This document shows positions 7,105-30,700 of a stretch of DNA of 40,505 nt, in pieces; the first letter of the stretch is position 1; every line of letters begins with the position of its first letter. Position numbers and translations under genes: made by a program. The stretch comes from Rickettsiales bacterium. Lineage in GTDB: Bacteria > Pseudomonadota > Alphaproteobacteria > Rickettsiales > UBA1997. The stretch lies in NCBI GenBank assembly GCA_016778745.1, contig JADHOZ010000003.1:1-40505 (forward strand), read 5' to 3'. The notes under the pieces are model-generated. The model ran no database searches. It had not been told where the DNA came from and was given only the letters and a program-made list of their open reading frames with translations.

Positions 7105-7120
7105 AATTTTTGTTCTTGAC

Positions 7121-7192: not shown

Positions 7193-7248
7193 AAAATTTT
7201 CTTCTTAATGTCCTTAATCAATAAATTAGTAATTTAATAAATATAAAA

Positions 7249-8238: not shown

Positions 8239-8246
8239 TTATTTAA

Positions 8247-8274
8247 GGGGTTAGATTTTTAAAAATCTAACCCC
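8247..8274. terminator. Intra-operon palindrome or hairpin
   Basis: Perfect 28-bp palindrome GGGGTTAGATTTTT/AAAAATCTAACCCC followed by a T-rich tract. Confidence 0.65.
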
Positions 8275-8289
8275 AATTATTTTTTAGTT

Positions 8290-8826: not shown

Positions 8827-8828
8827 TT

Positions 8829-13555: not shown

Positions 13556-13562
13556 AATGTGC

Positions 13563-13624
13563 TTGACAAGATAATTTTTACTAGACAGACTGTTCTGTAT
13601 AGTTGTTCTTTTTGAAAAAGTCAA
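13563..13624. promoter_or_regulatory. Overlapping opposite-strand promoters with a TetR-type operator
   Basis: Inverted repeat ACTAGACAGA-ctgt-TCTGTATAGT (13580-13603, 9/10). It covers the -10 of TTGACT-N17-TATACA on the - strand and of TTGACA-N17-CAGACT on the + strand. Confidence 0.65.
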
Positions 13625-13706: not shown

Positions 13707-13967
13707 ATGAATAAAAAAGAGAAATTTTTAAAAGCCGCTACTATTGCAATTACTGGCGCAGCAATCGTTGGTGCAACTTCTGCTCCAGCTTATGCAAAGA
13801 AAATGGAGAAATGTTATGGTGTTGTCAAGGCTGGTAAAAATGACTGTAGTTCAAAAGATGGTTCTCATTCTTGTGCTGGTGGCGCTAAAAAAGACGGTGA
13901 CACAAATGAGTGGATTTTAGTCAAAAAAGGTACTTGTGAGAGACTAGTAAATGGTAGTTTAAATTAA
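13707..13967 (+). CDS. bufA1: Bufferin precursor peptide (DUF2282)
   Basis: Sec signal ending AYA; EKCYGVVKAGKNDC...HSCAG...EW..V.KGTCERL.NGS with 4 Cys; RBS AAGGAG. Confidence 0.92.
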   Translation: MNKKEKFLKAATIAITGAAIVGATSAPAYAKKMEKCYGVVKAGKNDCSSKDGSHSCAGGAKKDGDTNEWILVKKGTCERLVNGSLN

Positions 13968-13976
13968 TTTATGACG

Positions 13977-14005
13977 CCAGGTACTTATTTAGTACCTGGT
14001 TTTTT
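13977..14005 (+). terminator. Hairpin or terminator between the precursor and maturase genes
   Basis: CCAGGTACT-tattt-AGTACCTGG followed by a T-run. Confidence 0.75.
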
Positions 14006-14007
14006 AT

Positions 14008-14826
14008 ATGTTTGGTTTGGGTTTAAGAGATTTACATCATAAATATGTGTTAACCAATAATCCTAAGGTGGATTTTTTTGAGGTGCATACAGAGAATTTT
14101 ATTGCTGATGGTGGTGCGAGTTTAGATTTTCTATCTAAAATTAATGAAAGATATGATCTTAGTTTTCACTGTGTTGGGTTGTCTATTGGATCTTTTGATG
14201 GAATTGATAAGAAGCATTTAAGGGATATTAAAAATCTGCTTGATAGGTTTAATCCTATTTTATTTTCTGATCATTTATCGTGGAGTGGCTCGAAGAAAAT
14301 TGGTCATTCTAATGATTTATTACCACTTCCTTTAACCCAAGAGGCTTTTGAGGTTTTTAAGAATAATGTTGATGAGATTCAGCAATATTGTGGGCGTAAA
14401 ATTTTAATTGAGAATCCTTCGGCTTATTTAGAATTTCAAAATAAAGAGTTGGGTGAGGTTGAGTTTTTAAATAAGTTAGTTGATGAGACTCACTGTGGTC
14501 TTTTGTTGGATATTAATAATATTTATGTTGGGGCAAAGAATTTCAATTTTGATGCGAAGCAATATATTGATGATATTAATTTTCCAGCAATTGGCGAGAT
14601 ACATTTAGCGGGTCATAGTGTTTATGAATTTAAAGGACAAGAAATTAGGATTGATACTCATTCTACTAATATTTGTAAGGACGTTTTTGATTTATATCGA
14701 TATTTTTTAAAAGAAAGCCAAATGAAGTTGCCAACTTTAGTTGAGTGGGATGAGGATATTCCTGAGTTTAGTGCATTATTTGACGAGCTTGTAAAGGTGA
14801 AGGAGGTAGTAAGTGAAATTGGCTAA
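14008..14826 (+). CDS. bufB: DUF692 multinuclear non-heme iron oxidative enzyme (MNIO), bufferin maturase
   Basis: GLGLR..H, FEVHTEN, H.VGLSIG, SDHLSW, IENPSAY, LLDINNIYV, EIHLAGH, IDTH and LVEWD. Confidence 0.95.
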   Translation: MFGLGLRDLHHKYVLTNNPKVDFFEVHTENFIADGGASLDFLSKINERYDLSFHCVGLSIGSFDGIDKKHLRDIKNLLDRFNPILFSDHLSWSGSKKIGHSNDLLPLPLTQEAFEVFKNNVDEIQQYCGRKILIENPSAYLEFQNKELGEVEFLNKLVDETHCGLLLDINNIYVGAKNFNFDAKQYIDDINFPAIGEIHLAGHSVYEFKGQEIRIDTHSTNICKDVFDLYRYFLKESQMKLPTLVEWDEDIPEFSALFDELVKVKEVVSEIG

Positions 14827-15532
14827 GCTACAAGAGCAATTCATTACTGCTATTTATGATAAACCAAGTGACGAAATTCTTGATGAGATTATATTAAGTA
14901 ATGTGCCAAAAGAGGAATTGCTTGGGATTTATCGCAATAATTTAGAGTGTCATTTGGTTAATGCATTAAAGCTGACTTTTGCTGGTGTATTTAATATTTT
15001 GAAGGAGGAAGAATTTTTGGAGTTGGCAAGTGAATTTGTTTTTAACAATCCCTCTAAAAGTAATAATTTAGACGATTATGGAGAAGGATTTGCCGAATTT
15101 TTAAGACAGAAGAAAGATAATTTTATTGCTGATTTGGCTAGGTTAGATTGGTTTAAACAAAAATCATATTTAGCTAAAAATAATGATGAGTTTAATCTGG
15201 AAAAGCTTCAAAAGGTTAGTCCTAAAGAATTATTTGATTTACGATTTGTGCTTGGTGATTCGGTATTTTTGTTGGAATCGGATTTTAATTTGTTGGCCAA
15301 TAGATACCAGAAAAGTAAAATGATTAGAAAATGTTATTTTTTGGTATTTAGGCATAAAATGTCTGGTGTTTTTGACGTTGAGTCTTTAAGAATTGCGCCA
15401 CAGGAATATAAGTTCCTAAAAGGGATTGAAGAAAAACTGACCTTATACGAAATATATGAAAAATATGAGGTTGATATTCAAAATATTTTGCAAAAATTCT
15501 TGTCCAATGGAGTTATTGCAGCGTTCTATTAA
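14813..15532 (+). CDS. bufC: DUF2063 / BufC MNIO partner protein
   Basis: LQEQF...IYRNN...AL..TF...YGEGFAEFL...DLARLDW; overlaps bufB. Confidence 0.88.
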   Translation: MKLAKLQEQFITAIYDKPSDEILDEIILSNVPKEELLGIYRNNLECHLVNALKLTFAGVFNILKEEEFLELASEFVFNNPSKSNNLDDYGEGFAEFLRQKKDNFIADLARLDWFKQKSYLAKNNDEFNLEKLQKVSPKELFDLRFVLGDSVFLLESDFNLLANRYQKSKMIRKCYFLVFRHKMSGVFDVESLRIAPQEYKFLKGIEEKLTLYEIYEKYEVDIQNILQKFLSNGVIAAFY

Positions 15533-15557
15533 TAAAAAGATAATAAAAGGAGAAGAA

Positions 15558-16031
15558 ATGAAATTTTCAATTGCTAATGCTCATAAATCCTGTGAAGATT
15601 TAAAAAAATTTTATGGTGTTTATGCCGATTTTCTAACGAAATATGCATCACATTTATTATTATTATTACTTAGAATTTCTGTTGGTTTGGTTTTTTTAAA
15701 AAGTGGCTTAACTAAGATTGCTAACGTCGATAATACTATTATTTTATTTGAATATGAATATGAGTTGCCTTTAATTTCACCAATTGTTGGGGCTTACTCT
15801 TCCATTTTTGCTGAGTTGGTTTTTGGAAGCGCGGTTATTGCTGGTTTTGTCACTAGATTATCGGTTGTTCCTTTGATTATTATGACGTTAATTATTCAGC
15901 TATTGGTAGTGCAAAATCCTGAACATTTTACGTGGCTATTTCAACTTTGTACTTTAGCAATTTATGGTGGGGGTATTTTATCTGTTGACGGTGTGTTGTG
16001 TAAATTTCTTTGTAAAAATAAGAAGAAATAG
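15558..16031 (+). CDS. bufD: DoxX family membrane protein
   Basis: LLRI...VFLKSGLTK, LFEYEY.LP, AEL, G..TR and GGG.LSVD. Likely start ATG 15558 with RBS AAGGAG. Confidence 0.9.
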   Translation: MKFSIANAHKSCEDLKKFYGVYADFLTKYASHLLLLLLRISVGLVFLKSGLTKIANVDNTIILFEYEYELPLISPIVGAYSSIFAELVFGSAVIAGFVTRLSVVPLIIMTLIIQLLVVQNPEHFTWLFQLCTLAIYGGGILSVDGVLCKFLCKNKKK

Positions 16032-16376
16032 TTGCGGTAATATTTTTTAACTTTGTTGGGTGTTGATTGAGTGTCAGTATCCGATTTTCTTTTGCTATGC
16101 CAATTCTTATCTTTTTCTCATCTTCATTTGGTTCAACTCATAAGTTGTAAAAAAAGGTTTTTTTATAGGAAAAATGTTGAAAATTTCGTAAAAAACTATA
16201 ATTTTGTTGATGTTCTAGTCGTTTTTGTTTCAAATTTGGAAAATTTTGATAAAAAATAGGGTTTTTCCTTGAGAGAAGTTCTTTTTGTACGCTATAAGTG
16301 CCTCCTTATTGGCTTTGTTTGAGGAAAAAAATTGTTAAGTCGCGTAAATGCTGCTTTGATTGAAAGTTTTTAGTTA

Positions 16377-17525
16377 ATGAGTTTTGTGAAAAGGTTTGTG
16401 AAAAAGATATTAAGATTTTTGAAGAGAAATCCATTTAAGATTTTATTTGCCATTTTCTTCTGTTCTTTGAGTAGTTATGTTGTTATGGGTACTTTGATGG
16501 ATGATTCTACTAGAGCGCAAGAAAAGGTGTTTGATCCAAATATTAAAGGAGACAAACCGCTGGCGGTGGATGTTGATGTGGTTTTAGTCAAGAAGCAAGA
16601 AGTGCAAACTACAAAAGAGTTGCCTGGTAGGGTTGTGGCACTGAATAGTTCAGAAGTGCGTTCTCAGGTTGATGGTGTTATTACTAACGTATTGTTTGAA
16701 GAGGGTTCTTATGTTGAGAAAGGACAGCAATTATATCAAATTGATCCAGATCTTTATCAAGCTAGATTTTCAAAAGTTAAGGCAAATTATCATTTTTTAA
16801 GGAAAAAGAAATATCGTTATAGTAAATTATTGAAAATTGGAGCCGTTAGTAGGCAGGAATTTGAAGAAGTTAATTCGGCCTATGTTGGCGCTAGGGAGGA
16901 TTTAAGACAGGCTGAAATTGATTTAGAATATAGTAAGGTTTATGCGCCAATTTCTGGTCATATTGGGGTTTCATATTTCACAAAGGGAGCCTTAACTAAG
17001 AAAGATGAGAATGCGGTTTTGGCGATAATTAATCAAATTGATTCGGTATTTGTTGATGTCAGATATCCTGCGAGTGAGTTTGGTATTATTAGGCAGCATT
17101 TGAATTGTAACGTATCAATTGAGACAAGTGACGGTAAGGTTTTAGAGGGTGGTGTTATTGATTCATTTGAAAGGGAAATTGATCAATCTTCGGATTCTTT
17201 CTTAGTGAGAGTTAGAATTGATAATAAGGACTTAGAATTGGCTCCAGGTATGTATGTGGGGGTTAGTTTTTCGTTAGAATCGACGCAAGGCATTACTGTT
17301 CCGATCAAAACAACTTATAGGGACGTTGATGGCAGTTTGTTTGTGTGGCATGTCAATGCGCAACATATTGTGAGTAAGAGAAATATTGTTGCCAATAGTA
17401 TATTTCAAAATAGTTGGGTCGTTGAGTCTGGATTAAAGGAAAATGAGACGATAGTTTATGAGGGTGTGCAAAAAATTTATGAAGGTGCGCTAATAAACCC
17501 TAATATAGCTCAGGGGGTGAAGTAG
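16377..17525 (+). CDS. acrA: RND efflux periplasmic adaptor (AcrA-like)
   Basis: N-terminal TM; EVRSQVDGVI...FEEGS.V.KGQQLYQIDP, APISGHIG and PGMYV. Confidence 0.9.
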   Translation: MSFVKRFVKKILRFLKRNPFKILFAIFFCSLSSYVVMGTLMDDSTRAQEKVFDPNIKGDKPLAVDVDVVLVKKQEVQTTKELPGRVVALNSSEVRSQVDGVITNVLFEEGSYVEKGQQLYQIDPDLYQARFSKVKANYHFLRKKKYRYSKLLKIGAVSRQEFEEVNSAYVGAREDLRQAEIDLEYSKVYAPISGHIGVSYFTKGALTKKDENAVLAIINQIDSVFVDVRYPASEFGIIRQHLNCNVSIETSDGKVLEGGVIDSFEREIDQSSDSFLVRVRIDNKDLELAPGMYVGVSFSLESTQGITVPIKTTYRDVDGSLFVWHVNAQHIVSKRNIVANSIFQNSWVVESGLKENETIVYEGVQKIYEGALINPNIAQGVK

Positions 17526-20500
17526 TGGAAATATCAAAGTTCTTTATTAAACGCCCGATTTTTTCTTGGGTTCTGGCAATTATTGTGATGCTGGCCGGTT
17601 TGCTATCTATTTTTTCTATGCCTGTTGAGCAATATCCAAATATTGCTCCTCCTACTGTTTCTATTTCCACTTCTCTTCCTGGAGCTTCTGCGAAAGTTTT
17701 AGAAGATAGTGTGACGCAAATTATTGAGCAAAATCTATCGGGAATTGATTATTTACGTTATTTTGAATCAAGCAGCGATTCGGACGGTAATGTGAAAGTC
17801 GTTTTGACATTTGAACCAGAGGCAGATGTCAATATTGCGCAAGTGCAGGTACAAAATAAGTTGCAGGCAGCAATGCCATTACTTCCTATTGAGGTGCAAC
17901 AACAGGGTGTGAGGATTAATAAAGCAAATAATAATTTTTTGTTGGTTGTCGCTCTTTATTCAAAAGATGATAGATTTAATCAGGCAGATCTGGGTGATAT
18001 TTTATTAAGTGATTTAAAAGATTCTATTGCCAGGATTGATGGTGTAGGAAATGTTATTGTTTTTGGTAATCCAAAGGCGATGAGAATTTGGGTGGATCCG
18101 ATAAAATTATTTACTTATTCACTAAATATTTCTGAGGTTGTTAGTGCGATAAGAGAGCAAAATATTGATGTGAGTACGGGTCAATTGGGTGGGCTGCCTG
18201 CTGTTGATGGGCAACAAATTAATGCTGTTATTAATTCTAAGTCGAAATTACATGATGTTGCTGCATTTAATAATATTATTATTAGGGCTAAAGAGGATGG
18301 TTCAATTATTACGTTAGGTGATGTTGCAACGGTTGAGCTTGGTTCGGATAAATATAGTACTGTTGCTAGATATAAGCGGCACCCGGCGTCAGGTATGGCG
18401 GTTGTGTTGGCAAGTGGCGCTAATGCGTTGGAAACAGCAGATTTAATTAAAAAAAGAGTGTCGGAAATCGAGAAATTTTTGCCGAAAGGAGTTGGGGTTG
18501 TGTATCCTTATGATTCAACACCTTTCATTAAATTGTCAATTAAAGGTGTGGTTAAGACTTTATTTGAAGCGGTTTGTTTGGTGTTTTTGGTGATGTTGTT
18601 GTTTTTACAAAATTTTAGAGCAACTTTGGTGCCAACAATTGCTATTCCCGTTGTTTTGCTTGGGACGTTTGCGGTTTTAAATGCTTTTGGTTTTACGATT
18701 AATACGTTAACAATGTTTGCAGTTGTATTAGTAATTGGGTTGTTGGTGGATGATGCAATTGTGGTGGTAGAAAATGTTGAGAGGGTAATTCATGAAGAAA
18801 ATATGGATCCGAGACAGGCAACTAAATTGTCGATGAAACAAATTACGTCGGCTTTGATTGGGATTGCTTTGGTGTTATCTGCTGTGTTTGTGCCAATGGC
18901 GTTTTTTGGAGGGTTGACGGGTAAGATTTATCAGCAATTTTCAGTGACGATTGTTGTGGCGATGGCTTTGTCGGTTTTGGTGGCATTGATTCTATCTCCC
19001 TCTTTATGTGCAACTATTTTGCAAAATAAGGAAGAGCATGAAAAGGGGGTTAAATTTAAGGTTTTACAGATTTTTAATCAGAAATTAGAAAAATTTCGGG
19101 AAGTCTATGTTACCTATTGTCAGCATATTATTGATAATAAGAAAAAGGGCTTCGTGATATATGGTGTGGTGATTATTTTGTTGGTGTTGGTATTTAGAAT
19201 TTTGCCAACGGCGTTTTTGCCAAGTGAAGATCAAGGGACCATGTATCTCATGACTAAATCTCCTGCTGGCGCGACTATTGATAGAAGTTTGGACAGCTTG
19301 AAGAAAGTTGAGGATTATTTTTTGGATGTTGAGAAAGATAATGTGGATCATTTATTTACGGTAGCTGGTTTTAGTTTTGCAGGTAGAGCGCAAAATGTTG
19401 GATTTGGTTTTGTTGGCTTGAAAGAATGGGAAAAAAGGAAGGGATCAGAAAATTCTGTCGAAGCAATATCAAATAGAGCTTTTACTAGTTTGCAAGAGGT
19501 TAAAGATGCGTTGGTATTTACATTTTCTCCACCACCAATAAGGGAACTTGGTACTACTTCTGGATTTGATTTGCAGCTTTTGGATCGATCTGGTAAGGGG
19601 CATAACTTTTTGATGGAAGCTCGAAACCAGCTTCTTGAAAAAGCAAGTTTAAGTGAAATATTGGCTGGGGTTAGGCCAGAGGGACTTGAAGATGTAGCAG
19701 AATATCAAATTGATATTGATGATAAGAAAGCGATGAGTTTGGGAGTGAGTGTTAGCGATGTTAATGACGTATTGCAAGTAGGTTGGGGTTCACTTTATGT
19801 GAATGATTTTATTGATAAGGGCAGGGTGAAAAAGGTTTATTTGCAAGGGTTAGATAAATATCGAATGATGCCGGATGATTTATCAAAATGGTATATTAAA
19901 AATAAAGATTCACAAATGGTGCAATTGACTAATTTTGCTAAGGGTAAATGGAGTTATGGTTCGCCAAAGTTGGAAAGATTTGCTGGGTTTTCATCTGCCA
20001 GTATTAAGGGATCTGGTGCCGATGGTGTTAGCTCTGGAGAAGCAATTGCTAAAATGGAGGCGTTGATTAGTGAATTACCAGATGGAGTTGATCATTTTTG
20101 GAGTGGTATTTCTTATGAAGAAAAGAGACTGGGGTCTAGGACATTGATATTATATGCGATCTCTATTTTAGTGGTGTTTTTGTCTTTGGCGGCTTTGTAT
20201 GAGAGTTGGACAATTCCTTTTTCGGTGATTATGGTAGTGCCTTTTGGAGTATTAGGATCTGTGGTAATGGCTAAGTTATGTGGTATGAATAATGATGTTT
20301 ATTTTCAAATTGGGCTGTTAACTACTATTGGTTTGTCTGCTAAAAATGCTATTTTGATTGTTGAATTTGCCCGTGATTTAACGAAGCAAGGTGTTGAGTT
20401 GGTGGATGCGGTGTTAAGAGCGGCAACATTAAGATTTAGACCTATTTTAATGACTTCAATGGCGTTTTTACTTGGTATCATACCATTGGCAACATCTACC

Positions 20501-20632
20501 GGTGCTGGATCAGCTAGTCAGAAGGCGATTAGTATTGGTATTATTGGTGGAATGTTGATGGCGACATTTGTGGCTACTTTATTTGTGCCAATGTTTTTTG
20601 TGGTGATGCAGAAATTGGGAGGTAAAAAGTGA
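17525..20632 (+). CDS. acrB: RND efflux permease, HAE1 (AcrB-like)
   Basis: FFIKRPIF, QYP.IAPP; proton-relay motifs VDDAIVV, AKNAIL and RFRPILMT; 1035 aa. Confidence 0.95.
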   Translation: MEISKFFIKRPIFSWVLAIIVMLAGLLSIFSMPVEQYPNIAPPTVSISTSLPGASAKVLEDSVTQIIEQNLSGIDYLRYFESSSDSDGNVKVVLTFEPEADVNIAQVQVQNKLQAAMPLLPIEVQQQGVRINKANNNFLLVVALYSKDDRFNQADLGDILLSDLKDSIARIDGVGNVIVFGNPKAMRIWVDPIKLFTYSLNISEVVSAIREQNIDVSTGQLGGLPAVDGQQINAVINSKSKLHDVAAFNNIIIRAKEDGSIITLGDVATVELGSDKYSTVARYKRHPASGMAVVLASGANALETADLIKKRVSEIEKFLPKGVGVVYPYDSTPFIKLSIKGVVKTLFEAVCLVFLVMLLFLQNFRATLVPTIAIPVVLLGTFAVLNAFGFTINTLTMFAVVLVIGLLVDDAIVVVENVERVIHEENMDPRQATKLSMKQITSALIGIALVLSAVFVPMAFFGGLTGKIYQQFSVTIVVAMALSVLVALILSPSLCATILQNKEEHEKGVKFKVLQIFNQKLEKFREVYVTYCQHIIDNKKKGFVIYGVVIILLVLVFRILPTAFLPSEDQGTMYLMTKSPAGATIDRSLDSLKKVEDYFLDVEKDNVDHLFTVAGFSFAGRAQNVGFGFVGLKEWEKRKGSENSVEAISNRAFTSLQEVKDALVFTFSPPPIRELGTTSGFDLQLLDRSGKGHNFLMEARNQLLEKASLSEILAGVRPEGLEDVAEYQIDIDDKKAMSLGVSVSDVNDVLQVGWGSLYVNDFIDKGRVKKVYLQGLDKYRMMPDDLSKWYIKNKDSQMVQLTNFAKGKWSYGSPKLERFAGFSSASIKGSGADGVSSGEAIAKMEALISELPDGVDHFWSGISYEEKRLGSRTLILYAISILVVFLSLAALYESWTIPFSVIMVVPFGVLGSVVMAKLCGMNNDVYFQIGLLTTIGLSAKNAILIVEFARDLTKQGVELVDAVLRAATLRFRPILMTSMAFLLGIIPLATSTGAGSASQKAISIGIIGGMLMATFVATLFVPMFFVVMQKLGGKK

Positions 20633-21993
20633 GAATATTAGCAATTGGATTATTATTGTTTGTTTTGTCTTGTAGTCTTGAACCAAAATATGAGGCGCCA
20701 CAGGTTGATGTTAATTTGAAAGAATTTGAGAAAGGTAGTGTTAGGGTGAGTGAGGTTTCGTGGCAGGAATTTTTCGGTAGTTATGATTTGAAGAGGGTGA
20801 TTGATATTGTTTTAAAGAATAATCGTGATTTAAAAATTGGGGATTTAAATATCGGTGTTGCGAAGAAAAATCATGCAATCAGGATATCTGATTTATTGCC
20901 TAATATTAATGCTGGGGCATCATACACTAGAAGAAAATTGCCGGGAAGCTTTAGTCGCTTTGCTGCTTCTAGGCAATATAATGTAAATTTGGCGTCACTT
21001 TCTTATGAGTTGGACTTTTTTGGTCGACTGCGAAGTTTGAAGTCATCAGCTTTGGAAGATTATTTAGCGAGTCAAGAAGCAAGAAAATCAATACAGCTTT
21101 CTTTGATATCAGAGGCGGTGGACAGTTATTTAAATTTGATTTTGGATAGGGAGCTTTTGCTTATGTTGAAATCTAGTGTTGCGTTGCAGGAATTGCGATA
21201 TGATTTGATTCGTAAGAGATATAATAATGGTGTGTCAAAGGTGACAGAAGAAATTGCCGCGAGAATTGAGCTTGAGAATGTTAAAATTAATTATGAAGAT
21301 TATAAAAATCGAGTTTTGGAAGATGAGAATCAGTTGCTTAATTTGATGGCCTCTTATGATAGGGATTTATTACCGGATGAAAATATTAGGATTTTGCGAG
21401 TGAAGGCGAGAGAAGAATTGTTAGAATTTGTAGTGTCAAAAACGCTATTACAAAGGCCAGATATTCAACAAGCAGAGCATAATTTAAGATCGGCTAATGC
21501 TTTGATTGGAGCATCTAGGGCTGCGTTTTTTCCGTCAATTACTTTGAGTGGGGATTATGGTTATACATCGGTGGAGTTTGAAAATTTATTTGACTCAAGT
21601 ACTTGGAATTTTATGCCACAAATTAATGTGCCAATTTTTAATGCTGGTAGAAATCAGGCAACATTAGATATTGCAAAATTAAGAAAAAATGTCGAAGTTG
21701 TGAAATATGAGCAGGTGATTCAAAATGCTTTTGAAGAGACACTAAATGCTTTGCAACTTAGAAAAACATTGGCTTTTCAGACGAAATCATATGGTAATAT
21801 TCTAAAATCTAAGGAGAGATTACTTAATATTACTAAAAAGAATAAACAATATGGTTTGGCAAGTAAAATTGATGTTTTGGAAGCTAGATTAGGGTATTTA
21901 GAGGCCAAAAGAGCGTATTTACAGTCAGAAAAGGATTATTTTGTGAGTTTGGTTAATATTTATAAGGCTCTTGGCGGAGGCAGTGCCATTTAA
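20629..21993 (+). CDS. Outer-membrane efflux lipoprotein (NodT/OprM family)
   Basis: Lipobox VLSC, W..FF, N.DL, ELDFFGR, RPDI..AE, AFFPSITL and YKALGGG; GTGA overlap. Confidence 0.93.
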   Translation: MRILAIGLLLFVLSCSLEPKYEAPQVDVNLKEFEKGSVRVSEVSWQEFFGSYDLKRVIDIVLKNNRDLKIGDLNIGVAKKNHAIRISDLLPNINAGASYTRRKLPGSFSRFAASRQYNVNLASLSYELDFFGRLRSLKSSALEDYLASQEARKSIQLSLISEAVDSYLNLILDRELLLMLKSSVALQELRYDLIRKRYNNGVSKVTEEIAARIELENVKINYEDYKNRVLEDENQLLNLMASYDRDLLPDENIRILRVKAREELLEFVVSKTLLQRPDIQQAEHNLRSANALIGASRAAFFPSITLSGDYGYTSVEFENLFDSSTWNFMPQINVPIFNAGRNQATLDIAKLRKNVEVVKYEQVIQNAFEETLNALQLRKTLAFQTKSYGNILKSKERLLNITKKNKQYGLASKIDVLEARLGYLEAKRAYLQSEKDYFVSLVNIYKALGGGSAI

Positions 21994-22006
21994 TTTGGAG
22001 AATGTC

Positions 22007-22510
22007 ATGTTGGAAAGGAATCATTTGGTTAACAGTATTGGTGATGTTTTTGATCAATATAAAAAGATGATTCTTGCTATTGGGGTCGATGTTTTTTGTA
22101 AAGATTGTCATCATTCTTCTTCGTTGGGGGCTCATGTTAGACATGTTTTGGATAGAGCTAATTGCGTTGTTGAGGGGTTTGAGTTTGGGGAGATTGATTA
22201 CGATAATAGAAGAAGGCAATCAGCGTTAGAAACGAATCCAGAATTATGTGTGCAAGAATTTGACAGGATATTTTGGTTGATAAAAGAGTTTGATGGTGAT
22301 GTGAAAAATGAGGTTGAGGTTAGTGAAACGGCGAATGAAGATGGTATGAAGGTTAGGTTAAAATCTAGTTTTGAACGGGAATTTTGGGATATTGTTTTAC
22401 ACGGCGTTCATCATTTGGCGACGATTAAGTTTATCTTAGAAAAAAATGGGGTTGTGGTCGATAAGGATTTTGGCAAGAATATGTCGACTGTTATTTATGA
22501 AAGAGGATAG
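22007..22510 (+). CDS. DinB/YfiT-like four-helix metalloprotein
   Basis: SLGAHVRHVLD, IDYD.R.R, SSFERE...HGVHHLA and FG...ST. Start ATG 22007 with a GGAG RBS. Confidence 0.85.
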   Translation: MLERNHLVNSIGDVFDQYKKMILAIGVDVFCKDCHHSSSLGAHVRHVLDRANCVVEGFEFGEIDYDNRRRQSALETNPELCVQEFDRIFWLIKEFDGDVKNEVEVSETANEDGMKVRLKSSFEREFWDIVLHGVHHLATIKFILEKNGVVVDKDFGKNMSTVIYERG

Positions 22511-22518
22511 TTGTTTTT

Positions 22519-23202
22519 ATGTGTACGTTATTGATTTTAAAACAAGATGATAACGCTATTGCGGTGATGAATCGTGATGATGCTAAGGTGCGTTTTGAGG
22601 AAGCTCCTAGGGAGTTTGAAGGTGGGGTTTCGTCTCCGGTGGATGTGCGATCTGGTGGTACTTGGATTGGTGTTAATAAAAATAATGTGTCTGGGTTTTT
22701 GTTAAATCGTTATGATGAGTGTGAGGTTGATAACAAGAAAAGTAGGGGTGAGATTGTTTTGAAGGTTTTGGCTGAGGGGAGATTTGAGAGCTGCGTTTCT
22801 TGCGTTGGTAAAATGGATTTGGGGTGCTTTATGCCCTTTTCTTTGGTGTTGTTTGATGGTGTTAGAATTTGTCGATTTGATTGGAATGGTTCTATTTTGT
22901 CGAAAGAAGATTTGGTGTTGGAGGACTATTTTGTTTTGACATCTTCATCTCTTAAAACGAAAGAAATTCAACAATGGCGTTATGAAAGGTTTAATGATTG
23001 GAATAAGGGTGGTAGGAAATTTGTTGGAGATCTTCCTTTATTTAATGTGTTGCAAGTTAAGGGTTGTGAGGATTATTCTGTGATGGTTGAAAGACCTAGC
23101 GTATGTACTTTGAGTATTACTAAGCTTTGTTTTAATAGTGAAAGGGTGGATATTGAGTATTTACCGCGTGAAGAAATAATAGAGTTAATTGTAAATGACT
23201 AA
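22519..23202 (+). CDS. NRDE/TANGO2 family protein (Ntn-hydrolase-like fold)
   Basis: N-terminal MCT, NRDD, D..SGGTWIGVN, LLN, SRG.IV, PFSL, SSS and TLS. Confidence 0.88.
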   Translation: MCTLLILKQDDNAIAVMNRDDAKVRFEEAPREFEGGVSSPVDVRSGGTWIGVNKNNVSGFLLNRYDECEVDNKKSRGEIVLKVLAEGRFESCVSCVGKMDLGCFMPFSLVLFDGVRICRFDWNGSILSKEDLVLEDYFVLTSSSLKTKEIQQWRYERFNDWNKGGRKFVGDLPLFNVLQVKGCEDYSVMVERPSVCTLSITKLCFNSERVDIEYLPREEIIELIVND

Positions 23203-26200
23203 TATTTATCCGCTAACCCGACAACAGCAAGGTCTTTGGGTTGAATGGAAAAGAAACGCCAACGATATTTCCTACAATACTTGCGTGCAAGTTGAGATGG
23301 AAGGGGAGTTGGATGTTGAGAGATTTAAGCAGGCTGCCAATAATGCAGTTGAGCATTTTGATATGTTGAGAGCTTATTTAGTTGAAGAAGATTTAAAGCC
23401 TTATTTGGCTTTTGGTGATGAAAAATATGAGCTGCCATTTACTGATTTTTCCGAAGGTGATATTGAAAGTGATTTATTAAGAAAAAAAGCCATTAAGTTT
23501 CTTGATGATATTAGGCTGAAGCCGATTCCTTTGGATGAATATCCGTTGGTGAATGCGCATTTGGTTAAAACGGCTAAAAATAAATTTTATTTTATTGGCG
23601 TCGTGCCGCATTTGATCTCGGATGGTGTGTCGGCGGTGATGTTTTTACAAAGTTTGTCGGCTTGTTACAATCATGGCAAAGCATATTTAAAAGAAAATTT
23701 TTCTTATGAAGGTGTTTCGTGGGTTGATTATTTAAAGCTTTGCGATGAAAAATTTCCGCAAGAAAAATATGATGAGGCTTATGAATATTGGGCGAGTAGT
23801 TTGGCAAATGTGACGCATAAGGTTGATATTGGGAATAAACCTTGTCATAGGCAGTCAAATTTGGGATCGAGGTTTAAATTTGATGCGAGTGTTGAAGTGT
23901 TTGCGCGTTTAAAAAAGATTGCTAGGGCGAATAAGACAGGGTTTTTTTCGGTGATTTCGGCTAGTTTAGCGGCCTTTATTTCGAGATATTATGCACCTGA
24001 GGATATGGTGATTGGATATCCAGTGAATTTAAGGCCGGCTGGTTATCGTAATGCTTTTGGGTTTTATGTTAATGTTTTGCCTTTGAAGATTGGGTTTGAT
24101 AAGGGAGATAGTTTTAATGATTTGGTTAGGAAGTCTCACGAGCAAAGGAAGTTGGATAAGGAATTTCAATATTTGCCATCTATTGATATTATTAGAAGCA
24201 AGAGGCGCAGTGATACTAGTTTTGATGGTCAGATGTTTAATGTTTCGATGGCTCAGACCGTGTCTAGATTGCAAAATTTAGAATTGGAAAATATTAAATC
24301 AACGTCGCTGGATAATGAAACTATTGAGATTAAAGATGATTTGTCGTTGATTTATGAGGTGAGAGAAGATGGGATTTCATTTTGGTTTGAATATTTAAAA
24401 GAGATATTTGATGAGAGTCAAATAGCCGATATGGCGCAAAATTTTGTGACTCTTTTGGAAGGGATGGTGGATGATCCGGATAGATCGATTGGTGATATTG
24501 ATTTGGTTTTAGAAAATGTTAGTGAAGGGTTGAGAGAAAAGTTTGTCGGTCTTGATATTATTAGTGAATTTAAGAAAGCGGTTGCAAATAACTATGATGT
24601 TGATGCGTTGATATTTAACGATCAAAGGATTTCTTACCGAGAGCTTGATAAAAGATCGGATTCATTGGCAAAATATTTAGCGCAGAATGTTGTGCAAAGT
24701 GAGAGATTTATTGCCTTGGCTTTACCTTACTCGGTAGAGAGGATAGTGGCGATATTGGCGGTTTTAAAGGCTGGATTTGCTTACATTCCAATTGGGGAGG
24801 AAACGCCAATTGAGAGGATTAACACTATTATTGAAGATAGTGGGGTTTTGACTTTAGTTTCTTTGCAAAGGATTGCTGTGGGTGTAGCAAATATTGTTCT
24901 TGGTGATTTAAATTTAAGTGACGATGCATTTGAGGTAAGGAAAAGTGAATTGGCTTATGTTATTTACACTTCTGGCTCTACCGGAAAGCCAAAGGGTGTG
25001 TTGGTTGAGCAAGATAAGGTGGTGGCGCGTATTAATTGGTTGAAGAAGGAATTTCCACTTCGTGCTAAAGATAAGGTGTTGCAAAGTACTAGCTATTCTT
25101 TTGATGTGAGTGTGGCGGAGATATTTTGGCCACTTTTAAGTGGTGCAACATTGGTGATTTTAGATGAAGAAAAACGCAAAGATTTTCGTTACCAGGCAGA
25201 TTTGATTGAAGAACATCAGATAAAGGCTGCTTGTATGGTTCCTTCAGCTATTTTGGCGTTGTTAAAGGCGGTTGAGAGGGATTTGCCATTTAGATATTTG
25301 TTGAGTGCGGGTGAGGCGATGAGTCGGGAATTGGTTGAGCAATATTACAAATATGGTGCGCAAGGTAGTTTGTATAATGTTTATGGACCGACCGAGGCTG
25401 TTATTTATGCGTCTGTTAAGAAGGTTTTAAAGGGTGATAAAATTACGATTGGTAAGGCAATTGATAATAGTCGATTGTATGTTTTAAATGACAAATTAAA
25501 GATGCAGCCCAAAAATGCGGTTGGCGAGCTGTGTATTGGTGGTGATGCGTTGGCGCTTGGTTATTTACATCAAGATCAGTTGACGAAGGATCGGTTTGTG
25601 GATAGTCCTTACGGGAAAGGCAAATTATATCGCACAGGGGATTTGGTGAGTTTTAGCGATAATTTGGAGGTTCAATATTATGGGCGCATTGATTCGCAGG
25701 TGAAAATTAGAGGTTATCGTATTGAGATTGGTGAAATTGAGTCAATATTGTTAGATATTTTGGAAATAGAAGAGGTGGTTGTTTTTGTAAATGAAAATAG
25801 TCAACTTGTTGCGGCTGTTGTTGTAAGTGGTGATGTGAGTGATGAGGATATTAAGAAGTATTTGTCAAAATTTTTGCCATCTTACATGGTGGTGCAATTT
25901 TTGGTTAGATTTGATGAATTGCCAAAATTGGATAGTGGTAAGATTAATAAGAAATTGGTGCAAAATATTGCTAAAGATAAAATTTTAGATGTGGTGGTAA
26001 GTAGGGAGATTATTAAGGCGAAAACTGATAAAGAAAAAATGATGGCCAAGATTTGGTCGGATGTTTTGCGAGTTGATTTGGATGTGGTTGGCATTAATAG
26101 TAATTTTTTTGAGCTTGGCGGGGATTCGTTGATGATTATTGAGCTTGAATGTCTGGCTGAGAGACAAGGGATTTATTTGGATAGTAGGGTGATGTTTAAA

Positions 26201-27493
26201 AACCCGACAATAGCTGCTTTATTAGAAAATGCTTCTGACAAGCCAATCAATAAATTTAATCAGGAAATGGTTGAAGGACAAATTGGGCTTTTGCCACGCC
26301 AGATTAAGTTTTTTGAGGATGGTTTTGCAAAGCCAGATCAGTGGAGTAGGTGCGTGGTGGTCGAATCGAAAAGAGAGATTGATGTTGCTAAATTTAGAGA
26401 GTCTTTAAAAGAGGTGATGGATCATCATGATTCACTTCGTGTGTCGTTTGAAAAAATTAATGGTAAGTGGGTTGGTAATAATCATGGCTCAATTGATGCG
26501 GTTGTGAATGTCCATGATTTAGGTGATAAGAATTTGGATGATGAGTTAACCAGAGAAATTTTAAATAAGGAATTAGCGAGTTTTGATCTTGGCAAAGCGC
26601 CTTTGATTAAGGCTGTGTATTTGAAGTTTAAAAAACATGCAAGGATTGCGTTGATGGTGCATCATTTGTTGCTTGACATGAGGTCAATGAGGATCATTTT
26701 GGAAGATTTGATGATGAATTTTATGGCGAAAATGCAAGGTCAGACGTTTGAATTTAGTTACAAGACGTCTTCGGTGAGTGATTATTTGGCGGCTTTGAAT
26801 AGGCATCTTGAAGGTGATTTTGACAGTGAAATTGATTATTGGGTTGGTGAGTTGGGGCCGAGTCAAGATGAGATTGATGTGAAGGAAAGCGACATGGATT
26901 TTAGAAATGTGAGTTTGGATAAGAAACGTACAAAAGAACTGATTCAGTTGGCGGCGCAACATGATGTGTCGCTGCACGAGGTTTTGTTGGCTAAATTTGC
27001 TAATCGCTATTTTGAAATATTTGGTCAGGATTTGGTGCTTAATACTTGTTTTCATGGGCGAGATCAGTTTTTGGACGGCGTTAAGATTAGTAAAACGGTT
27101 GGGTGGTTTAATACGGTTTTTCCGGTTCGCATCAAACAAAATCAAGGTGATCTTTTTGGTTATTTGAAGGATAAATTAAAAAATATTCCAAGCAGGTCAC
27201 TTAATTATTTGCCGCTTCGCTTTTTGAAAAAAGAGGAGAGATTGGTTGGTTTGGCTGAGCCGAAAATATTTTTTAATTATGTGAGTAAAATTGATCGGGA
27301 ATTGCCGAAAGAATTTAGTGCAAAATTGCCGTTAAAAATTATTAATGTTGATGGTCTTGAGGTGATTGATAAGAGTGAAAAATCTTGCTACGAACTTTAT
27401 GTTGAAGCAGCAATTATTGATGAAAAATTGCAGGCAAAAATTGGGTATTTGAGGGGGAAATATGATGAAAGATGGGTGGAGAGTTTATTTTAG
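23195..27493 (+). CDS. Monomodular non-ribosomal peptide synthetase: C-A-PCP-epimerase-like
   Basis: C: PHLISDG, FGFYVNVLPL. A: YTSGSTGKPKG, SFDVS, YGPTE, YRTGD, VKIRGYRIE, SGK. PCP: FFELGGDSL. E-like: HHLLLD, HGRD, TVGWF, FNY. Confidence 0.93.
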   Translation: MTNIYPLTRQQQGLWVEWKRNANDISYNTCVQVEMEGELDVERFKQAANNAVEHFDMLRAYLVEEDLKPYLAFGDEKYELPFTDFSEGDIESDLLRKKAIKFLDDIRLKPIPLDEYPLVNAHLVKTAKNKFYFIGVVPHLISDGVSAVMFLQSLSACYNHGKAYLKENFSYEGVSWVDYLKLCDEKFPQEKYDEAYEYWASSLANVTHKVDIGNKPCHRQSNLGSRFKFDASVEVFARLKKIARANKTGFFSVISASLAAFISRYYAPEDMVIGYPVNLRPAGYRNAFGFYVNVLPLKIGFDKGDSFNDLVRKSHEQRKLDKEFQYLPSIDIIRSKRRSDTSFDGQMFNVSMAQTVSRLQNLELENIKSTSLDNETIEIKDDLSLIYEVREDGISFWFEYLKEIFDESQIADMAQNFVTLLEGMVDDPDRSIGDIDLVLENVSEGLREKFVGLDIISEFKKAVANNYDVDALIFNDQRISYRELDKRSDSLAKYLAQNVVQSERFIALALPYSVERIVAILAVLKAGFAYIPIGEETPIERINTIIEDSGVLTLVSLQRIAVGVANIVLGDLNLSDDAFEVRKSELAYVIYTSGSTGKPKGVLVEQDKVVARINWLKKEFPLRAKDKVLQSTSYSFDVSVAEIFWPLLSGATLVILDEEKRKDFRYQADLIEEHQIKAACMVPSAILALLKAVERDLPFRYLLSAGEAMSRELVEQYYKYGAQGSLYNVYGPTEAVIYASVKKVLKGDKITIGKAIDNSRLYVLNDKLKMQPKNAVGELCIGGDALALGYLHQDQLTKDRFVDSPYGKGKLYRTGDLVSFSDNLEVQYYGRIDSQVKIRGYRIEIGEIESILLDILEIEEVVVFVNENSQLVAAVVVSGDVSDEDIKKYLSKFLPSYMVVQFLVRFDELPKLDSGKINKKLVQNIAKDKILDVVVSREIIKAKTDKEKMMAKIWSDVLRVDLDVVGINSNFFELGGDSLMIIELECLAERQGIYLDSRVMFKNPTIAALLENASDKPINKFNQEMVEGQIGLLPRQIKFFEDGFAKPDQWSRCVVVESKREIDVAKFRESLKEVMDHHDSLRVSFEKINGKWVGNNHGSIDAVVNVHDLGDKNLDDELTREILNKELASFDLGKAPLIKAVYLKFKKHARIALMVHHLLLDMRSMRIILEDLMMNFMAKMQGQTFEFSYKTSSVSDYLAALNRHLEGDFDSEIDYWVGELGPSQDEIDVKESDMDFRNVSLDKKRTKELIQLAAQHDVSLHEVLLAKFANRYFEIFGQDLVLNTCFHGRDQFLDGVKISKTVGWFNTVFPVRIKQNQGDLFGYLKDKLKNIPSRSLNYLPLRFLKKEERLVGLAEPKIFFNYVSKIDRELPKEFSAKLPLKIINVDGLEVIDKSEKSCYELYVEAAIIDEKLQAKIGYLRGKYDERWVESLF

Positions 27494-27540: not shown

Positions 27541-27566
27541 ATTTCTTGCAGGTACCTGCAAGAAAT
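27541..27566. terminator. Perfect palindrome after the NRPS operon
   Basis: ATTTCTTGCAGGT/ACCTGCAAGAAAT, a 26-bp perfect inverted repeat about 48 bp after the stop. Confidence 0.6.
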
Positions 27567-27713: not shown

Positions 27714-30700
27714 GTGCCTGGAGAAAGTCAATTAAAAAACAAGATAGAAGAATATAAAAATGGCGGCTCCAGGGCGCGTATGTTACGCGAGATGGCGGTA
27801 CTTGATATTGGCGCATTGGCAACGACTGATCTGAATCAAATAGAATTTGAATTTGATACAAAAAATCCTCGTAAGCTAAAAAGTAAGCAGTCAGGAAAAT
27901 ATTATGAGTATTATCGAGATCCTTCCATGATGGTTGCGATCTATCAATGCTTGTTTAGAAGTTTAAATAAAGATGTTAAAGAGTTTTTGCAGACTTTAGA
28001 TGAAAAATTGAAAATATTTGATGCGAATGGTGTTTTGGACGAGGTGGCAAGTCGATATCACAAGTCGTTGGTGTTTACGGATTTTATTAAACGAAAAAGA
28101 GCAGATGCAGATATTAGGATTGAACAAGAAGATTTGGATCATATTTTTCAATTTATTGTTGCCAATAAGTTATCTATCGAGGAAGCGCGAGGAATTTTAG
28201 GGAATACTTTTGCTGACGCGGAGATTGGTGACGATGTGAAAGCAAAAATCAAGGGATTCTTTTGTGATTATTTACAAAGTAATTTGCAAGAAATTGGTTG
28301 GTTTAATGCGGGATCCGAGGATGTTAAGCACGAGGCAGGAGATGTAGTTACTGAAAATATAGGTGTGGTTCGTTCTTTTGAAACAATAAAAAGCGGGTTT
28401 GATGGAGAACTGGTTAATGCTTGTAATATTGATGAGGTTTTTAACCATTGTCAGGCAGAATATGATAGGGTTTTTAAAGAGCAATATAATGCCAAGATGT
28501 TGTATTTTCTTTTTATTATTATGGATGAAAGGCATGAATATAGGTCAAGACAATATGGAGCGGATTGGGGTGAGTATCATAAATGTGTTGCAGAAATAAA
28601 TGATCTTTTGGCGGATCCCAATTTTGATGTTAAGGATTATTTTAAGCAATATGGCGTTAATATTCATGACTTTGATTTTCTTGAAAAAATTGATTTATCT
28701 GACTCGAAGATCGTATATTCGATAAAAACGGAATTGAAGGGCGCTTCAAAACGTGTTAACTATGGTGATGATCTGAGATTTTTAGGTTCCCCGATACATC
28801 AATATATTTTAGAATATGATTTAAAAAGATTCAGTTCCTATGATATTGTGGATAGGGAAAATAGACGGGATAGAAGTGAGGTTGAGAGAAAATTTAAGAG
28901 TTATTATAGAGATTTTTATGATAGTTTTACGAATCGAGACGAGTTTGGCTTTGCGCTATTAAAAACACAAATAGCGAGTATCAATAAAAAAGAAAAAAGA
29001 GGGATTTTACGAAATTCACAAAAGGTCATGGGTGATCGGAGTGCTGATATTTATGTTAATTTGAGCGATAATGTGCGTGTTTCAAAATTCTACGAGCTTC
29101 CGCTAAGTAGTGATGATAGAGAATCTGTAATTGGAAAAGTAGTTTTATTTGATGTGGTTTTAGAGGAAGAATCCATCGCGGCCATTAATGATGATGACGA
29201 ATTGCGAGGTCTTGTTACGGGTCGACAAGAATACGAATATCAAGGAATTAGATATGTTGAGATTGGCTTTAATTCTTTGAATGAAAGCCAGCAAAATAAA
29301 TTGTTAGATATTATCAATCGTTTTCCTAGGGTTGATATTAGATATATTGATTATCTTGATGATGATCATTTTGATTATGATTCTCGTGATGCGCAAAAAA
29401 ATATAAAAACGCGATCATTTATTAATATCAATAAAGCGGCAGAAGCTGAGTTAATCTCGATCATTCAAAACCCCGATTATACGGAGAAATTTGCAAAATA
29501 TTGTCGGAATCCAAAATATAAATCGCTAGCTGCTTCGATTCTTTCTCTGAGGGCAAAAAATCAGGAGGTTGACGATATTGATGTGATTTATAAAAAGCTA
29601 TTAGAGCATGCTTATGAAAAATCTCTATTAAAAGATGAGCGTGACATTTACATCACACCAAATCTTGATCTTGGTTGGGGTGAGGGTGATGATTATTTGG
29701 ATGCAAGTGCCATCGTTCCTATCTTTGAAGAAATTATTGCCTCGGGAAAAAACATCAGTGCTAATTCACTGCACTTATCTCTAGCTGATGGTAGTGATTT
29801 TCGATGGGCGCTTGATGAATTAAAACGAAGAATTTCCGATAAAGATGATTATTTAGATTTAAAAGGTCGCCCTTTTCCAATTGCTCAGCTTGTGATAAAT
29901 TGTAATGATTTCTTAATGGATGGTGTTAGTGACATTGCTGAATTTCAAAAGAGGTTATCCGAGACTCTTGCTGGTTTCGATGCTCTTGGTGTTAGAAAGT
30001 TGCGTATCAATTCTGGTTTTGGTAAGTTAAACCAAATAGGCATCGATGCAAAGATTTTTGGAGAAATTTTAGATGCGGCATTACTCGATGTAGGGGTAGA
30101 GGTTTCCTTTGAATATTGTTATCAAAGTGACGAGTCTGTCGTTACTAAAGAAAAAGCAAGAGTGAGTGCAGTTAAACAGCGACGAATTCAGGCTAAATTA
30201 ACAGATCCAGATGATTTAAATATTTATCGAAAGATTGAACCGGAAGGCGAAGATCCAGATGAAAAACATTATTCAAAAGGACATCAATTTTTATTTGGCT
30301 CGGCTTCTTACTCAGAAGAAGCCGAGGTTCATGAAGATCAGGAGCAAGAGCAAGAGATGGAAGTCTATGTTGATCAAAATGAGATTGAAGATTATAGTGA
30401 TAAGGTTGAAGAAGGAGTAAGTTTTGAAGATGAAGATTTGGTATCTAAAGAAAATATTGCCTTGAGAATGGCCCTTTCTTCAAAAGATAGAGCTTATTTT
30501 GCTGTGCCTAAAACAATTTCTCAATTACCAAAAGAATCAATACAAGATATTTGGGACGAAATCACTGGTGGTAGTGCCGCTTTTAATGATCAAAGTAAAA
30601 AACTATCAAATGATGATTTTAGAATTGACAAGATGACAAAAAAGGCTGCGTTAATGTTATTAAAACATAAAGTGGATGGTAGGTTTGCTGGTGGTTTAAA

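Follow-up and report, generated by a model that had tools for sequence, protein, structure and literature searches.

A stand-alone NRPS with conserved DinB-like and NRDE/TANGO2 partners and an altered epimerization domain in a Rickettsiales genome

We analysed a stretch of 40,505 nt from a Rickettsiales bacterium (the window), in which six tightly packed open reading frames (ORFs) on the + strand cover positions 16377-27493. They encode an efflux pump of the resistance-nodulation-division (RND) type in three parts, a protein with a predicted DinB fold (ORF4), an NRDE/TANGO2-family protein and a nonribosomal peptide synthetase (NRPS). We find that the conserved unit consists of three genes and not of six, i.e., the DinB-like, NRDE/TANGO2 and NRPS genes (the trio) are inherited together, while the pump genes appear from sequence comparison to be an older neighbour. 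As an NRPS gene cluster, it stands out by the unusual partners that are conserved with the NRPS and by an epimerization (E) domain that has been altered. The trio points to an undescribed small-molecule or lipid pathway; a published description was not found.

Conserved gene trio and its pump neighbour

To assess whether the trio is a unit, we rely on its occurrence among the genomes of the order. NRPS matches (E<=1e-50) are found in 21 of 400 genomes, five of which (G000, i.e., the source genome of the window, and G144, G088, G261 and G032; four families) carry a full-length single-module orthologue with 36-43% identity. In all five, the DinB-like and NRDE genes adjoin the orthologous NRPS gene, and they do so in two gene orders, namely DinB-NRDE-NRPS (G000, G144) and NRPS-YHS-DinB-NRDE (G088, G261, G032). 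Of 41 relatives, two (G000 and G032) gave an NRDE match, and the 24 other genomes of the family gave none; since these 24 also lack the NRPS orthologue, the trio genes come and go together. A metagenome locus (L083) with 62-84% protein identity to the window also keeps the trio, along with the pump, a TetR gene and the bufferin-like operon described below. The conserved synteny of DinB, NRDE and NRPS, which the initial annotation had proposed to check together with that of RND, is thus observed in five of five genomes of the order with the NRPS orthologue as well as in L083. The same annotation had named absent synteny or partner modules encoded elsewhere as evidence against a coupled system; what we see is adjacency throughout and a single NRPS per genome.

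The clusters of G032 (locus L163, contig C12, 10004-19681) and G088 (L197) are longer and read DUF547 - VTT/DedA - FAD disulfide reductase - 160-aa ORF without assignment - NRPS - YHS (seleno)protein - DinB - NRDE. In G032, a Cu/Zn superoxide dismutase gene follows. The FAD disulfide reductase is similar to MerA, Lpd and glutathione reductase, and for the 160-aa ORF of G032 the ESM Atlas holds no match of at least 0.9.

The window itself is contig C63 of G000, an assembly of 1.22 Mb in 83 contigs (90% complete) that derives from an aquatic metagenome and whose 16S rRNA gene shares 77% identity with that of E. coli. Its pump and trio genes and the elements that flank them are:

16055..16085, +: terminator-like hairpin, 13-pair stem with T-rich tail, 3' of the DoxX gene
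16377..17525, +: MFP (membrane fusion protein), RND periplasmic adaptor; Pfam HlyD_D23 and HlyD_3, TIGR01730 205.7 bits (cut-off 94.9)
17525..20632, +: RND permease of AcrB/HAE1 type; PF00873 1171 bits, TIGR00915 1488 (cut-off 940), NF000282 1427 (cut-off 1250)
20629..21993, +: OMF (outer-membrane efflux factor) of NodT/OprM type; PF02321, TIGR01845 276.1 bits (cut-off 210)
22007..22510, +: ORF4, DinB-fold protein, 167 aa; assigned by AlphaFold2 (AF2) fold, Foldseek, homologues and ESM Atlas
22519..23202, +: NRDE/TANGO2-family protein, 227 aa; PF05742 46.7 bits (cut-off 22.6)
23195..27493, +: stand-alone NRPS, 1432 aa, domain order given below
27541..27566, no strand: perfect 26-nt palindrome, 47 nt 3' of the NRPS stop, forming an 11-bp hairpin

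Six same-strand genes with gaps or overlaps of at most 13 bp and a closing palindrome had been described before, and direct reading of the junctions agrees with this. MFP and RND overlap by 1 nt and RND and OMF by 4 nt, ORF4 follows OMF after 13 nt and NRDE follows ORF4 after 8 nt, and the reading frames of NRDE and NRPS overlap by 8 nt. The 13-nt gap is counted from the ATG at 22007 behind GGAG, which is the start of the 167-aa protein matched at 100% identity; an earlier TTG at 21971 is also offered by the ORF listing. The MFP start is preceded by a gap of 345 nt, and the hairpin at 16055-16085 probably delimits the pump genes on their 5' side, against the bufferin-like operon that lies upstream. 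The palindrome downstream of the NRPS gene is not an intrinsic terminator in the sense of a hairpin directly followed by a U tract, i.e., no such tract follows it and the site is absent from the terminator-like sites of our scan. A sigma-70 promoter scan of the window yields 56 sites (53.1 +/- 8.1 in shuffles) and thus, lacking any excess, does not help with the operon structure.

All three pump proteins score above their NCBIfam subfamily cut-offs and their genes overlap, as expected for a tripartite RND pump of the HAE1 type, and none of them reaches the cut-off of a named NCBIfam equivalog (AcrB, MexA and others). Of 40 other family genomes, 10 have an MFP-RND-OMF operon (RND permease identity 58-68%) but not the trio. 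Four of these ten loci extend about 6-10 kb downstream of OMF, where neither a trio gene nor any other gene of the window follows. Conversely, no pump is found in the 16-20 kb analysed at the trio loci of G144, G088, G261 and G032; the nearest to it is a weak adaptor match in G032, which lies on the opposite strand. The pump therefore looks like an ancestral family-level operon that is older than the trio, that is, an older neighbour and not a fixed part of the system. It may export the product in this lineage, but it is not a conserved component. The initial idea of a pump coupled to the system hence holds as far as the linkage in the window and in L083 is concerned, and is not supported by the other four trios or by the ten family genomes with the pump alone. 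In L083, moreover, an ArsP_1-type permease gene (8864-9997) lies between OMF and ORF4, overlapping the stop of OMF and leaving 3 nt to ORF4, and a gap of 236 nt precedes NRDE.

Domains and substrate pocket of the NRPS

The NRPS comprises condensation (C), adenylation (A), carrier (T) and epimerization-type (E*) domains in the order C-A-T-E*, as assigned by Pfam, NCBIfam and PDB sequence matches:

23201..24517, +: N-terminal condensation domain; PF00668, residues 3-441, motif V-P-H139-x-x-S-D-G
24569..25942, +: adenylation domain; PF00501, TIGR01733 377.8 bits (cut-off 317.4), pocket DVASLAVIYK
26048..26227, +: carrier domain; PF00550, motif GGDS978L
26273..27490, +: epimerization-type domain; His1156-His1157 kept, Cys1285 (nt 27047-27049) at the position of the motif Glu

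PF00668, PF00501 and PF00550 are all above cut-off and the core residues are kept, so that a complete NRPS module is present, and neither frameshifts nor stops were seen in its reading frame. In the C-domain motif, the first His is replaced by Pro and the catalytic His139 is kept. We compared these features with an orthologue set of 45 full-length proteins (1400-1620 aa, 33-78% identity). The C-domain motif V-P-H-x-x-S-D-G, the carrier motif GGDSL with Ser978 as well as the His-His and Asp of the HHxxxD motif in the E* domain are kept in all 45, and the position of the E* Glu is occupied by Cys in 44 and by Thr in one.

The fourth domain (about 415 aa) carries the Pfam label Condensation, but its best matches are epimerization domains. 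Among PDB sequences, these are the E domains of BacC, PvdL, GrsA, TycA and TycB (E 5e-50 to 3e-32), compared with 4e-10 for the best ordinary C domain; TIGR01720 stays below its cut-off (39.8 vs 74.2). The E-G-H-G-R-E of BacC and PvdL aligns with C-F-H-G-R-D in the window. We take the first Glu of E-G-H-G-R to be the acid/base residue known as Glu882 in TycA and Glu892 in GrsA. The roles of these two residues are described in PMC8905534. Glu is found in 339 of 344 E-type (x-x-H-G-R) domains from 149 representative NRPSs plus the window, a set that is dominated by giant multi-E NRPSs and serves solely to tabulate the motif. Apart from the window, one fragmentary orthologue is the sole source of a Cys among these 344 domains. 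Given its presence in 44 of 45 orthologues, the change from Glu to Cys is a fixed trait of this NRPS family and not decay, and Cys1285 possibly forms a Cys-His catalytic pair with the His of the domain. The initial annotation had read the protein as a monomodular NRPS without thioesterase. The single module stands, but the module is not bare, since the E-type fourth domain, a further candidate for product release, had been missed.

The best solved match of the A domain is module 2 of LgrA (its second A domain, 293.9 bits). Read from the alignment, the pocket is DVASLAVIYK in the window and DIASLCIIYK in LgrA, where the pocket positions were mapped via the GrsA numbering. The code DVASLA[V/I/F/L]IYK is found in 37 of the 45 orthologues and DIASLCLIYK in two. 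LgrA module 2 is C-A-PCP-inactive E (PCP, peptidyl carrier protein) with glycine as substrate according to a review (PMC10510592). Our best guess for the substrate of the A domain is thus glycine or another very small amino acid.

The C domain stands at the very N-terminus without an upstream carrier, and no other carrier domain was found in G000. Pfam scans of the window agree with the earlier statement that it encodes no thioesterase, MbtH, phosphopantetheinyl transferase (PPTase) or second module. For the genome as a whole, both Condensation matches fall inside this NRPS ORF, and neither MbtH nor a PF00975 thioesterase was found; two further AMP-binding enzymes are present. Among the known means of release (thioesterase, reductase, terminal C domain or downstream module), none was found in G000, and the C-terminal domain is of E type. 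G032, G088, G144 and G261 (100, 99, 95 and 83% complete) show a single NRPS match each at E<=1e-50, with two candidates scored per genome.

The DinB-like and NRDE proteins, their cassette and further neighbours

ORF4 itself matches no entry of Pfam (even at E<=10) or NCBIfam, so the label DinB, already used in the initial annotation, holds by predicted fold and through homologues only. The AF2 model (pLDDT 88.8) finds DinB/YfiT superfamily members in all of its ten best-ranked Foldseek PDB matches (TM 0.5-0.75). The G032 homologue (27% identical) passes both Pfam DinB (28.6 vs 23) and DinB_2 (26.6 vs 24.8), and the L055 homologue remains below cut-off. The nearest ESM Atlas clusters are annotated as 'DinB family'. 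In an alignment of 36 sequences, His46, His132, His135 and His136 are invariant and His43 is nearly so, which makes them candidates for a metal-binding His triad as in the superfamily; further invariant columns of the subfamily are R45, Y65, R68, R70, R124 and E125. None of the PDB sequences was matched significantly by a profile of alignment A1 (best E 0.065). Taken together, ORF4 is predicted to be a four-helix-bundle protein of the DinB superfamily.

The assignment of its neighbour to NRDE/TANGO2 with an N-terminal Cys was confirmed. Besides scoring well above the PF05742 cut-off, the protein begins with Met-Cys and carries the motif N18-R19-D20; C2 is nearly invariant in the alignment and R19 and D20 are invariant. 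The AF2 model (pLDDT 96.2) has human TANGO2 as first Foldseek match, followed by acyl-CoA:isopenicillin N acyltransferase, acid ceramidase, bile-salt hydrolases (BSH) and NAAA. We thus predict a Cys N-terminal-nucleophile (Ntn; alpha-beta-beta-alpha) fold. What this family does biochemically is under debate. In the TANGO2 crystal paper (PMC13044924), the protein is argued to be a Cys Ntn hydrolase acting on fatty-acid derivatives, with acyl-CoA:isopenicillin N acyltransferase among the top fold matches of human TANGO2. Other sources describe TANGO2 as an acyl-CoA binder (PMC11867700), dispute its haem role (PMC12782551) or assign to HtpA, its bacterial homologue in Shewanella oneidensis, the trafficking of haem for cytochrome c maturation (PMC10470608). 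Neither DinB nor NRDE is mentioned in the main text of the HtpA paper. No literature linking NRDE/TANGO2 with DinB or an NRPS was found in a search that lay outside subscription journals and bioRxiv supplements.

To see how the two proteins occur elsewhere, we ran pattern scans that yielded 109 ORF4 relatives in species-representative genomes and 335 in metagenomes, and kept the best 80 of each (160 loci). Of the 134 loci that extend at least 700 nt beyond the DinB-like gene, 43 have NRDE as the next gene downstream on the same strand and 6 have it elsewhere in the locus; in 85 it was not found. Including shorter loci, the adjacency occurs 55 times; the gaps range from -3 to 240 nt. Hosts of the DinB-like loci include Planctomycetota, Verrucomicrobiota and several gammaproteobacterial families. 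An NRPS match is found only in the L083 and G032 loci among all 160. That is, DinB-like plus NRDE is a widespread cassette that exists without any NRPS. The two proteins, which the initial annotation had cast as release or tailoring enzymes of the NRPS, are therefore not dedicated ones. The neighbours of loci of at least 8 kb are distributed as follows:

Pair loci (n=29): VTT/DedA 21, DoxX-like 11, YHS 9, OlsF-like 9
DinB-only loci (n=75): VTT/DedA 6, DoxX-like 2, YHS 0, OlsF-like 7

The OlsF-like neighbour scores 398 bits, below the OlsF cut-off of 620, and the YHS protein matches NF041384, '(seleno)protein'. A seeming DinB-like/NRDE fusion was rejected as an artefact of overlapping stop-to-stop frames.

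The DinB-only loci belong mainly to two groups. In loci of the Pseudohongiella/SAR86 type (L003-L033, L084-L105), the DinB-like gene has no NRDE partner and immediately precedes iscR-iscS-iscU-iscA-hscB-hscA-fdx, and a divergently oriented PHP-domain gene borders its other side. In Halomonas, Chromohalobacter and Modicisalibacter (L037, L041-L073), it follows a gene for a 798-aa TTL/ATP-grasp-PqqD fusion and one to three familyless ORFs of about 119 aa, with DUF302 next. The latter layout looks like a locus for ribosomally synthesized and post-translationally modified peptides (RiPPs).

Concerning the remainder of the window, the strand asymmetry is very strong: each 1-kb bin has a positive GC skew (0.06 to 0.54; G+C about 30-39%) and nearly all long genes lie on the + strand. 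A giant ORF of more than 4264 aa (27714-40505, +) starts 220 nt downstream of the NRPS gene and runs off the window end. In Pfam, it matches nothing but a SecA DEAD-like motor together with a SecA P-loop domain (residues 2312-2843). It is not an NRPS, and it is not found downstream of the NRPS gene in L083. Directly upstream of the pump lies a DUF2282 - MbnB/MNIO (PF05114) - DUF2063 - DoxX operon (13707-16031, +), a layout that we take to be a bufferin-type copper-binding RiPP operon. It is preceded by genes for a TetR regulator (13001-13624, -) and a CDF transporter (12139-13011, -), and the whole TetR/CDF/bufferin-like block is conserved in L083. Further upstream (4395-9665), a ferritin-like gene and a TonB-dependent receptor gene (-) are followed by genes for a DUF6662 outer-membrane beta-barrel, an FMN-binding protein and ApbE (+), possibly a block for metal or flavin uptake.

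Proposed pathway, alternatives and known systems

We propose that the three-gene unit, i.e., a putative DinB-fold metalloprotein, an NRDE/TANGO2 Cys Ntn enzyme and a stand-alone C-A-T-E* NRPS behind an older AcrAB-TolC-like pump, makes a small acyl-glycyl compound, a reading we hold tentatively and as falling a little short of probable. In this lineage, the trio would have been placed directly behind the older pump operon. The A domain would load glycine, or another very small amino acid, on the T domain, and the N-terminal C domain would acylate it with a donor provided in trans (acyl-CoA or acyl-ACP). The acyl-glycyl thioester might then be removed from the carrier by the E-derived domain, with its family-specific Cys beside the catalytic His, or by the NRDE protein. 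Finally, the DinB-fold protein could modify the product or use it together with a metal. The release step has two precedents, namely the Cys Ntn enzyme that finishes the ACV-synthetase pathway and the Cys Ntn hydrolase acting on fatty-acid derivatives for which the TANGO2 crystal paper argues (PMC13044924); the nearest folds of NRDE cleave or transfer fatty-acyl amides and use acyl-CoA. An N-acyl-amino acid as NRPS product, as already suggested by the initial annotation, remains plausible. Since the NRPS-free cassette lies beside DedA/VTT, YHS, DoxX-like and OlsF-like genes, the chemistry probably concerns N-acyl-amino-acid-type membrane lipids or envelope redox stress.

A bolder generalization, which we consider unlikely as it stands, would be that proteins of the NRDE/TANGO2 family catalyse acyl transfer or acyl hydrolysis on N-acyl amino acids or acyl thioesters, paired with a DinB-fold metalloprotein. 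Here, they would serve a one-module NRPS whose E domain was rebuilt into a Cys-His catalyst, giving a minimal and so far undescribed route to an acyl-glycine-type lipid or signal. To our knowledge, no acyltransferase activity is known for any NRDE/TANGO2 protein.

Several observations weigh against the acyl-glycyl pathway. Glycine as substrate is deduced from the resemblance to a single solved domain and from pocket positions transferred via the GrsA numbering. Solved starter C domains (RzmA 7c1h, CDA 4jn3) match the N-terminal C domain at E about 1e-10 to 1e-11, compared with 1e-28 for 5u89; it is no nearer to solved starter than to elongation C domains, so that acyl donation is unproven. In G000, no second PP-binding (PF00550) match was found and thus no AcpP, and the PPTase search returned only one of AcpS size (148-aa frame, C46) and none of Sfp type, in an assembly that is only 90% complete and split into 83 contigs. 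Furthermore, the NRPS-linked pairs fall into an unresolved polytomy in the NRDE and DinB-like trees, spread over two to three of its lineages, so that the trees neither show nor exclude a single origin; the former tree stems from a careful search, the latter from a quick, unfinished one, and not every row near the window is confirmed to be NRPS-linked. The pump genes are packed with the trio as tightly as the trio genes among themselves, both in the window and in L083, such that export by the pump cannot be dismissed. Finally, DinB plus NRDE occurs mostly without an NRPS, and the adjacency may therefore reflect shared regulation rather than shared chemistry.

Two alternatives we regard as unlikely to a similar degree. 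According to the model of the initial annotation, all six genes form one dedicated biosynthesis-and-export operon in which the RND pump specifically exports what the NRPS makes. The junctions of at most 13 nt, the terminator-like site upstream of MFP, the hairpin after the NRPS gene and the tight packing of pump and trio on one strand in L083 fit this model. It is at odds with the four orthologous trios that have no pump within 16-20 kb, with the pump operon that lacks the trio in 10 of 40 family genomes (and any trio gene in the four with about 6-10 kb of downstream sequence), and with L083, where the ArsP-type permease gene and the 236-nt gap before NRDE interrupt the series. The pump also scores as a general multidrug HAE1 type. 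Alternatively, DinB-like and NRDE could be an envelope stress cassette (redox, metal or lipid) whose chemistry is unrelated to the NRPS, with the adjacency resulting from the same stress switch. The wide distribution of the pair without an NRPS speaks for it, as do its recurrent neighbours (YHS (seleno)protein, DoxX-like, DedA/VTT, a peroxiredoxin-YHS fusion, ECF (extracytoplasmic function) sigma factors and a Rieske/ferric-reductase protein), the copper-related bufferin-like operon, CDF transporter and TetR genes just upstream in the window, and the Cu/Zn superoxide dismutase and FAD disulfide reductase that adjoin in G032. But the adjacency is seen in five of five genomes from four families and survives the rearrangement of the gene order, the NRDE and NRPS frames overlap by 8 nt, and NRDE was not detected in any of the 24 other family genomes, which lack the NRPS orthologue as well.

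Two further alternatives are less probable. A thiol-conjugate detoxification similar to that of mycothiol or bacillithiol, which seems improbable to us, would combine a DinB-fold S-transferase, NRDE as conjugate amidase, the pump for expulsion and an NRPS that builds the low-molecular-weight thiol. The Foldseek list of ORF4 indeed contains mycothiol S-transferase (8fx9, 8f5v), mycothiol-dependent isomerase (2nsf) and the bacillithiol transferase BstA (5wk0), and the FAD disulfide reductase of the G032 and G088 clusters is related to glutathione, mycothione and mercuric reductases. On the other hand, thiol transferases are not the best fold matches of ORF4, the window, L083 and G144 lack the reductase, the pocket code is nearest to a Gly domain and unlike the Cys codes known to us, and one module cannot alone build a thiol cofactor. 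Least probable of all, and to a degree that we give it hardly any weight, is an orphan relic of a longer assembly line that makes nothing, comparable to LgrA module 2 with its inactive E domain. C-A-T-E is the order of an internal module, neither a release domain nor an Sfp-type PPTase was found in G000, and the usual E-domain Glu is missing. Nevertheless, 45 full-length orthologues with identities down to 33% keep all core motifs, the Cys itself is kept in 44 of them, genomes of just 1.2-2.4 Mb have kept a gene of 4.3 kb, and its frame is intact.

The gene pair and the NRPS matter beyond this genome. The biochemical function of the human disease protein TANGO2 is disputed between haem trafficking, acyl-CoA binding and a Cys Ntn hydrolase. 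The DinB-like and NRDE pair stands beside aminolipid and envelope genes, and beside a one-module NRPS in all five genomes of the order that hold the orthologue, and this trio context names candidate TANGO2-family substrates, i.e., carrier- or CoA-bound acyl-glycyl thioesters and N-acyl amino acids. If an NRDE/TANGO2 acyl enzyme together with DinB indeed serves the NRPS, the TANGO2 family would for the first time have a substrate context that is defined genetically. The NRPS family is unusual in its own right, being a stand-alone C-A-T-E module in such small genomes with a fixed Cys in the E-type domain, which may be a new way to release or isomerise a carrier-bound intermediate.

Among known systems, LgrA module 2 is the closest to the NRPS. 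Both share the domain order, a pocket with 7 of 10 identical positions (the other three being conservative) and an E-type domain after a probable glycine module. LgrA module 2 receives its substrate from the module before it and passes its product on to LgrB. The window module, in contrast, is alone in its genome, has its C domain starting at residue 3 and carries the conserved Cys for Glu in E*. The three pump genes resemble AcrAB-TolC and MexAB-OprM in passing the NCBIfam subfamily cut-offs and differ in that no named equivalog cut-off is reached. With YfiT, BstA, mycothiol S-transferase and ClbS of the DinB/YfiT superfamily, ORF4 shares the four-helix-bundle fold and the conserved His, but it has no Pfam match and belongs to a separate subfamily that is often found directly upstream of NRDE.

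The NRDE protein is of the same PF05742 family and fold as HtpA and human TANGO2, including Cys2 and the N-R-D motif. The roles described for these two differ, namely haem trafficking for HtpA (PMC10470608) and acyl-CoA binding for TANGO2 (PMC11867700). Like acyl-CoA:isopenicillin N acyltransferase (2x1c, 2x1d and 2x1e among the top fold matches), it would be a Cys Ntn enzyme that takes over from an NRPS, with an acyl thioester as substrate, but the sequence identity is only about 10-11%. The isopenicillin enzyme, which finishes the ACV-synthetase pathway, is made as a self-cleaving precursor, whereas the Cys of the window protein follows the start Met. Finally, the aminolipid synthases OlsF and GlsB/GlsA make N-acyl amino acids (ornithine and glycine lipids), a product class that the NRPS could share. 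They do so with unrelated GNAT plus PlsC-type acyltransferases that need no carrier protein, and the OlsF-like neighbours of the cassette stay below the OlsF cut-off.

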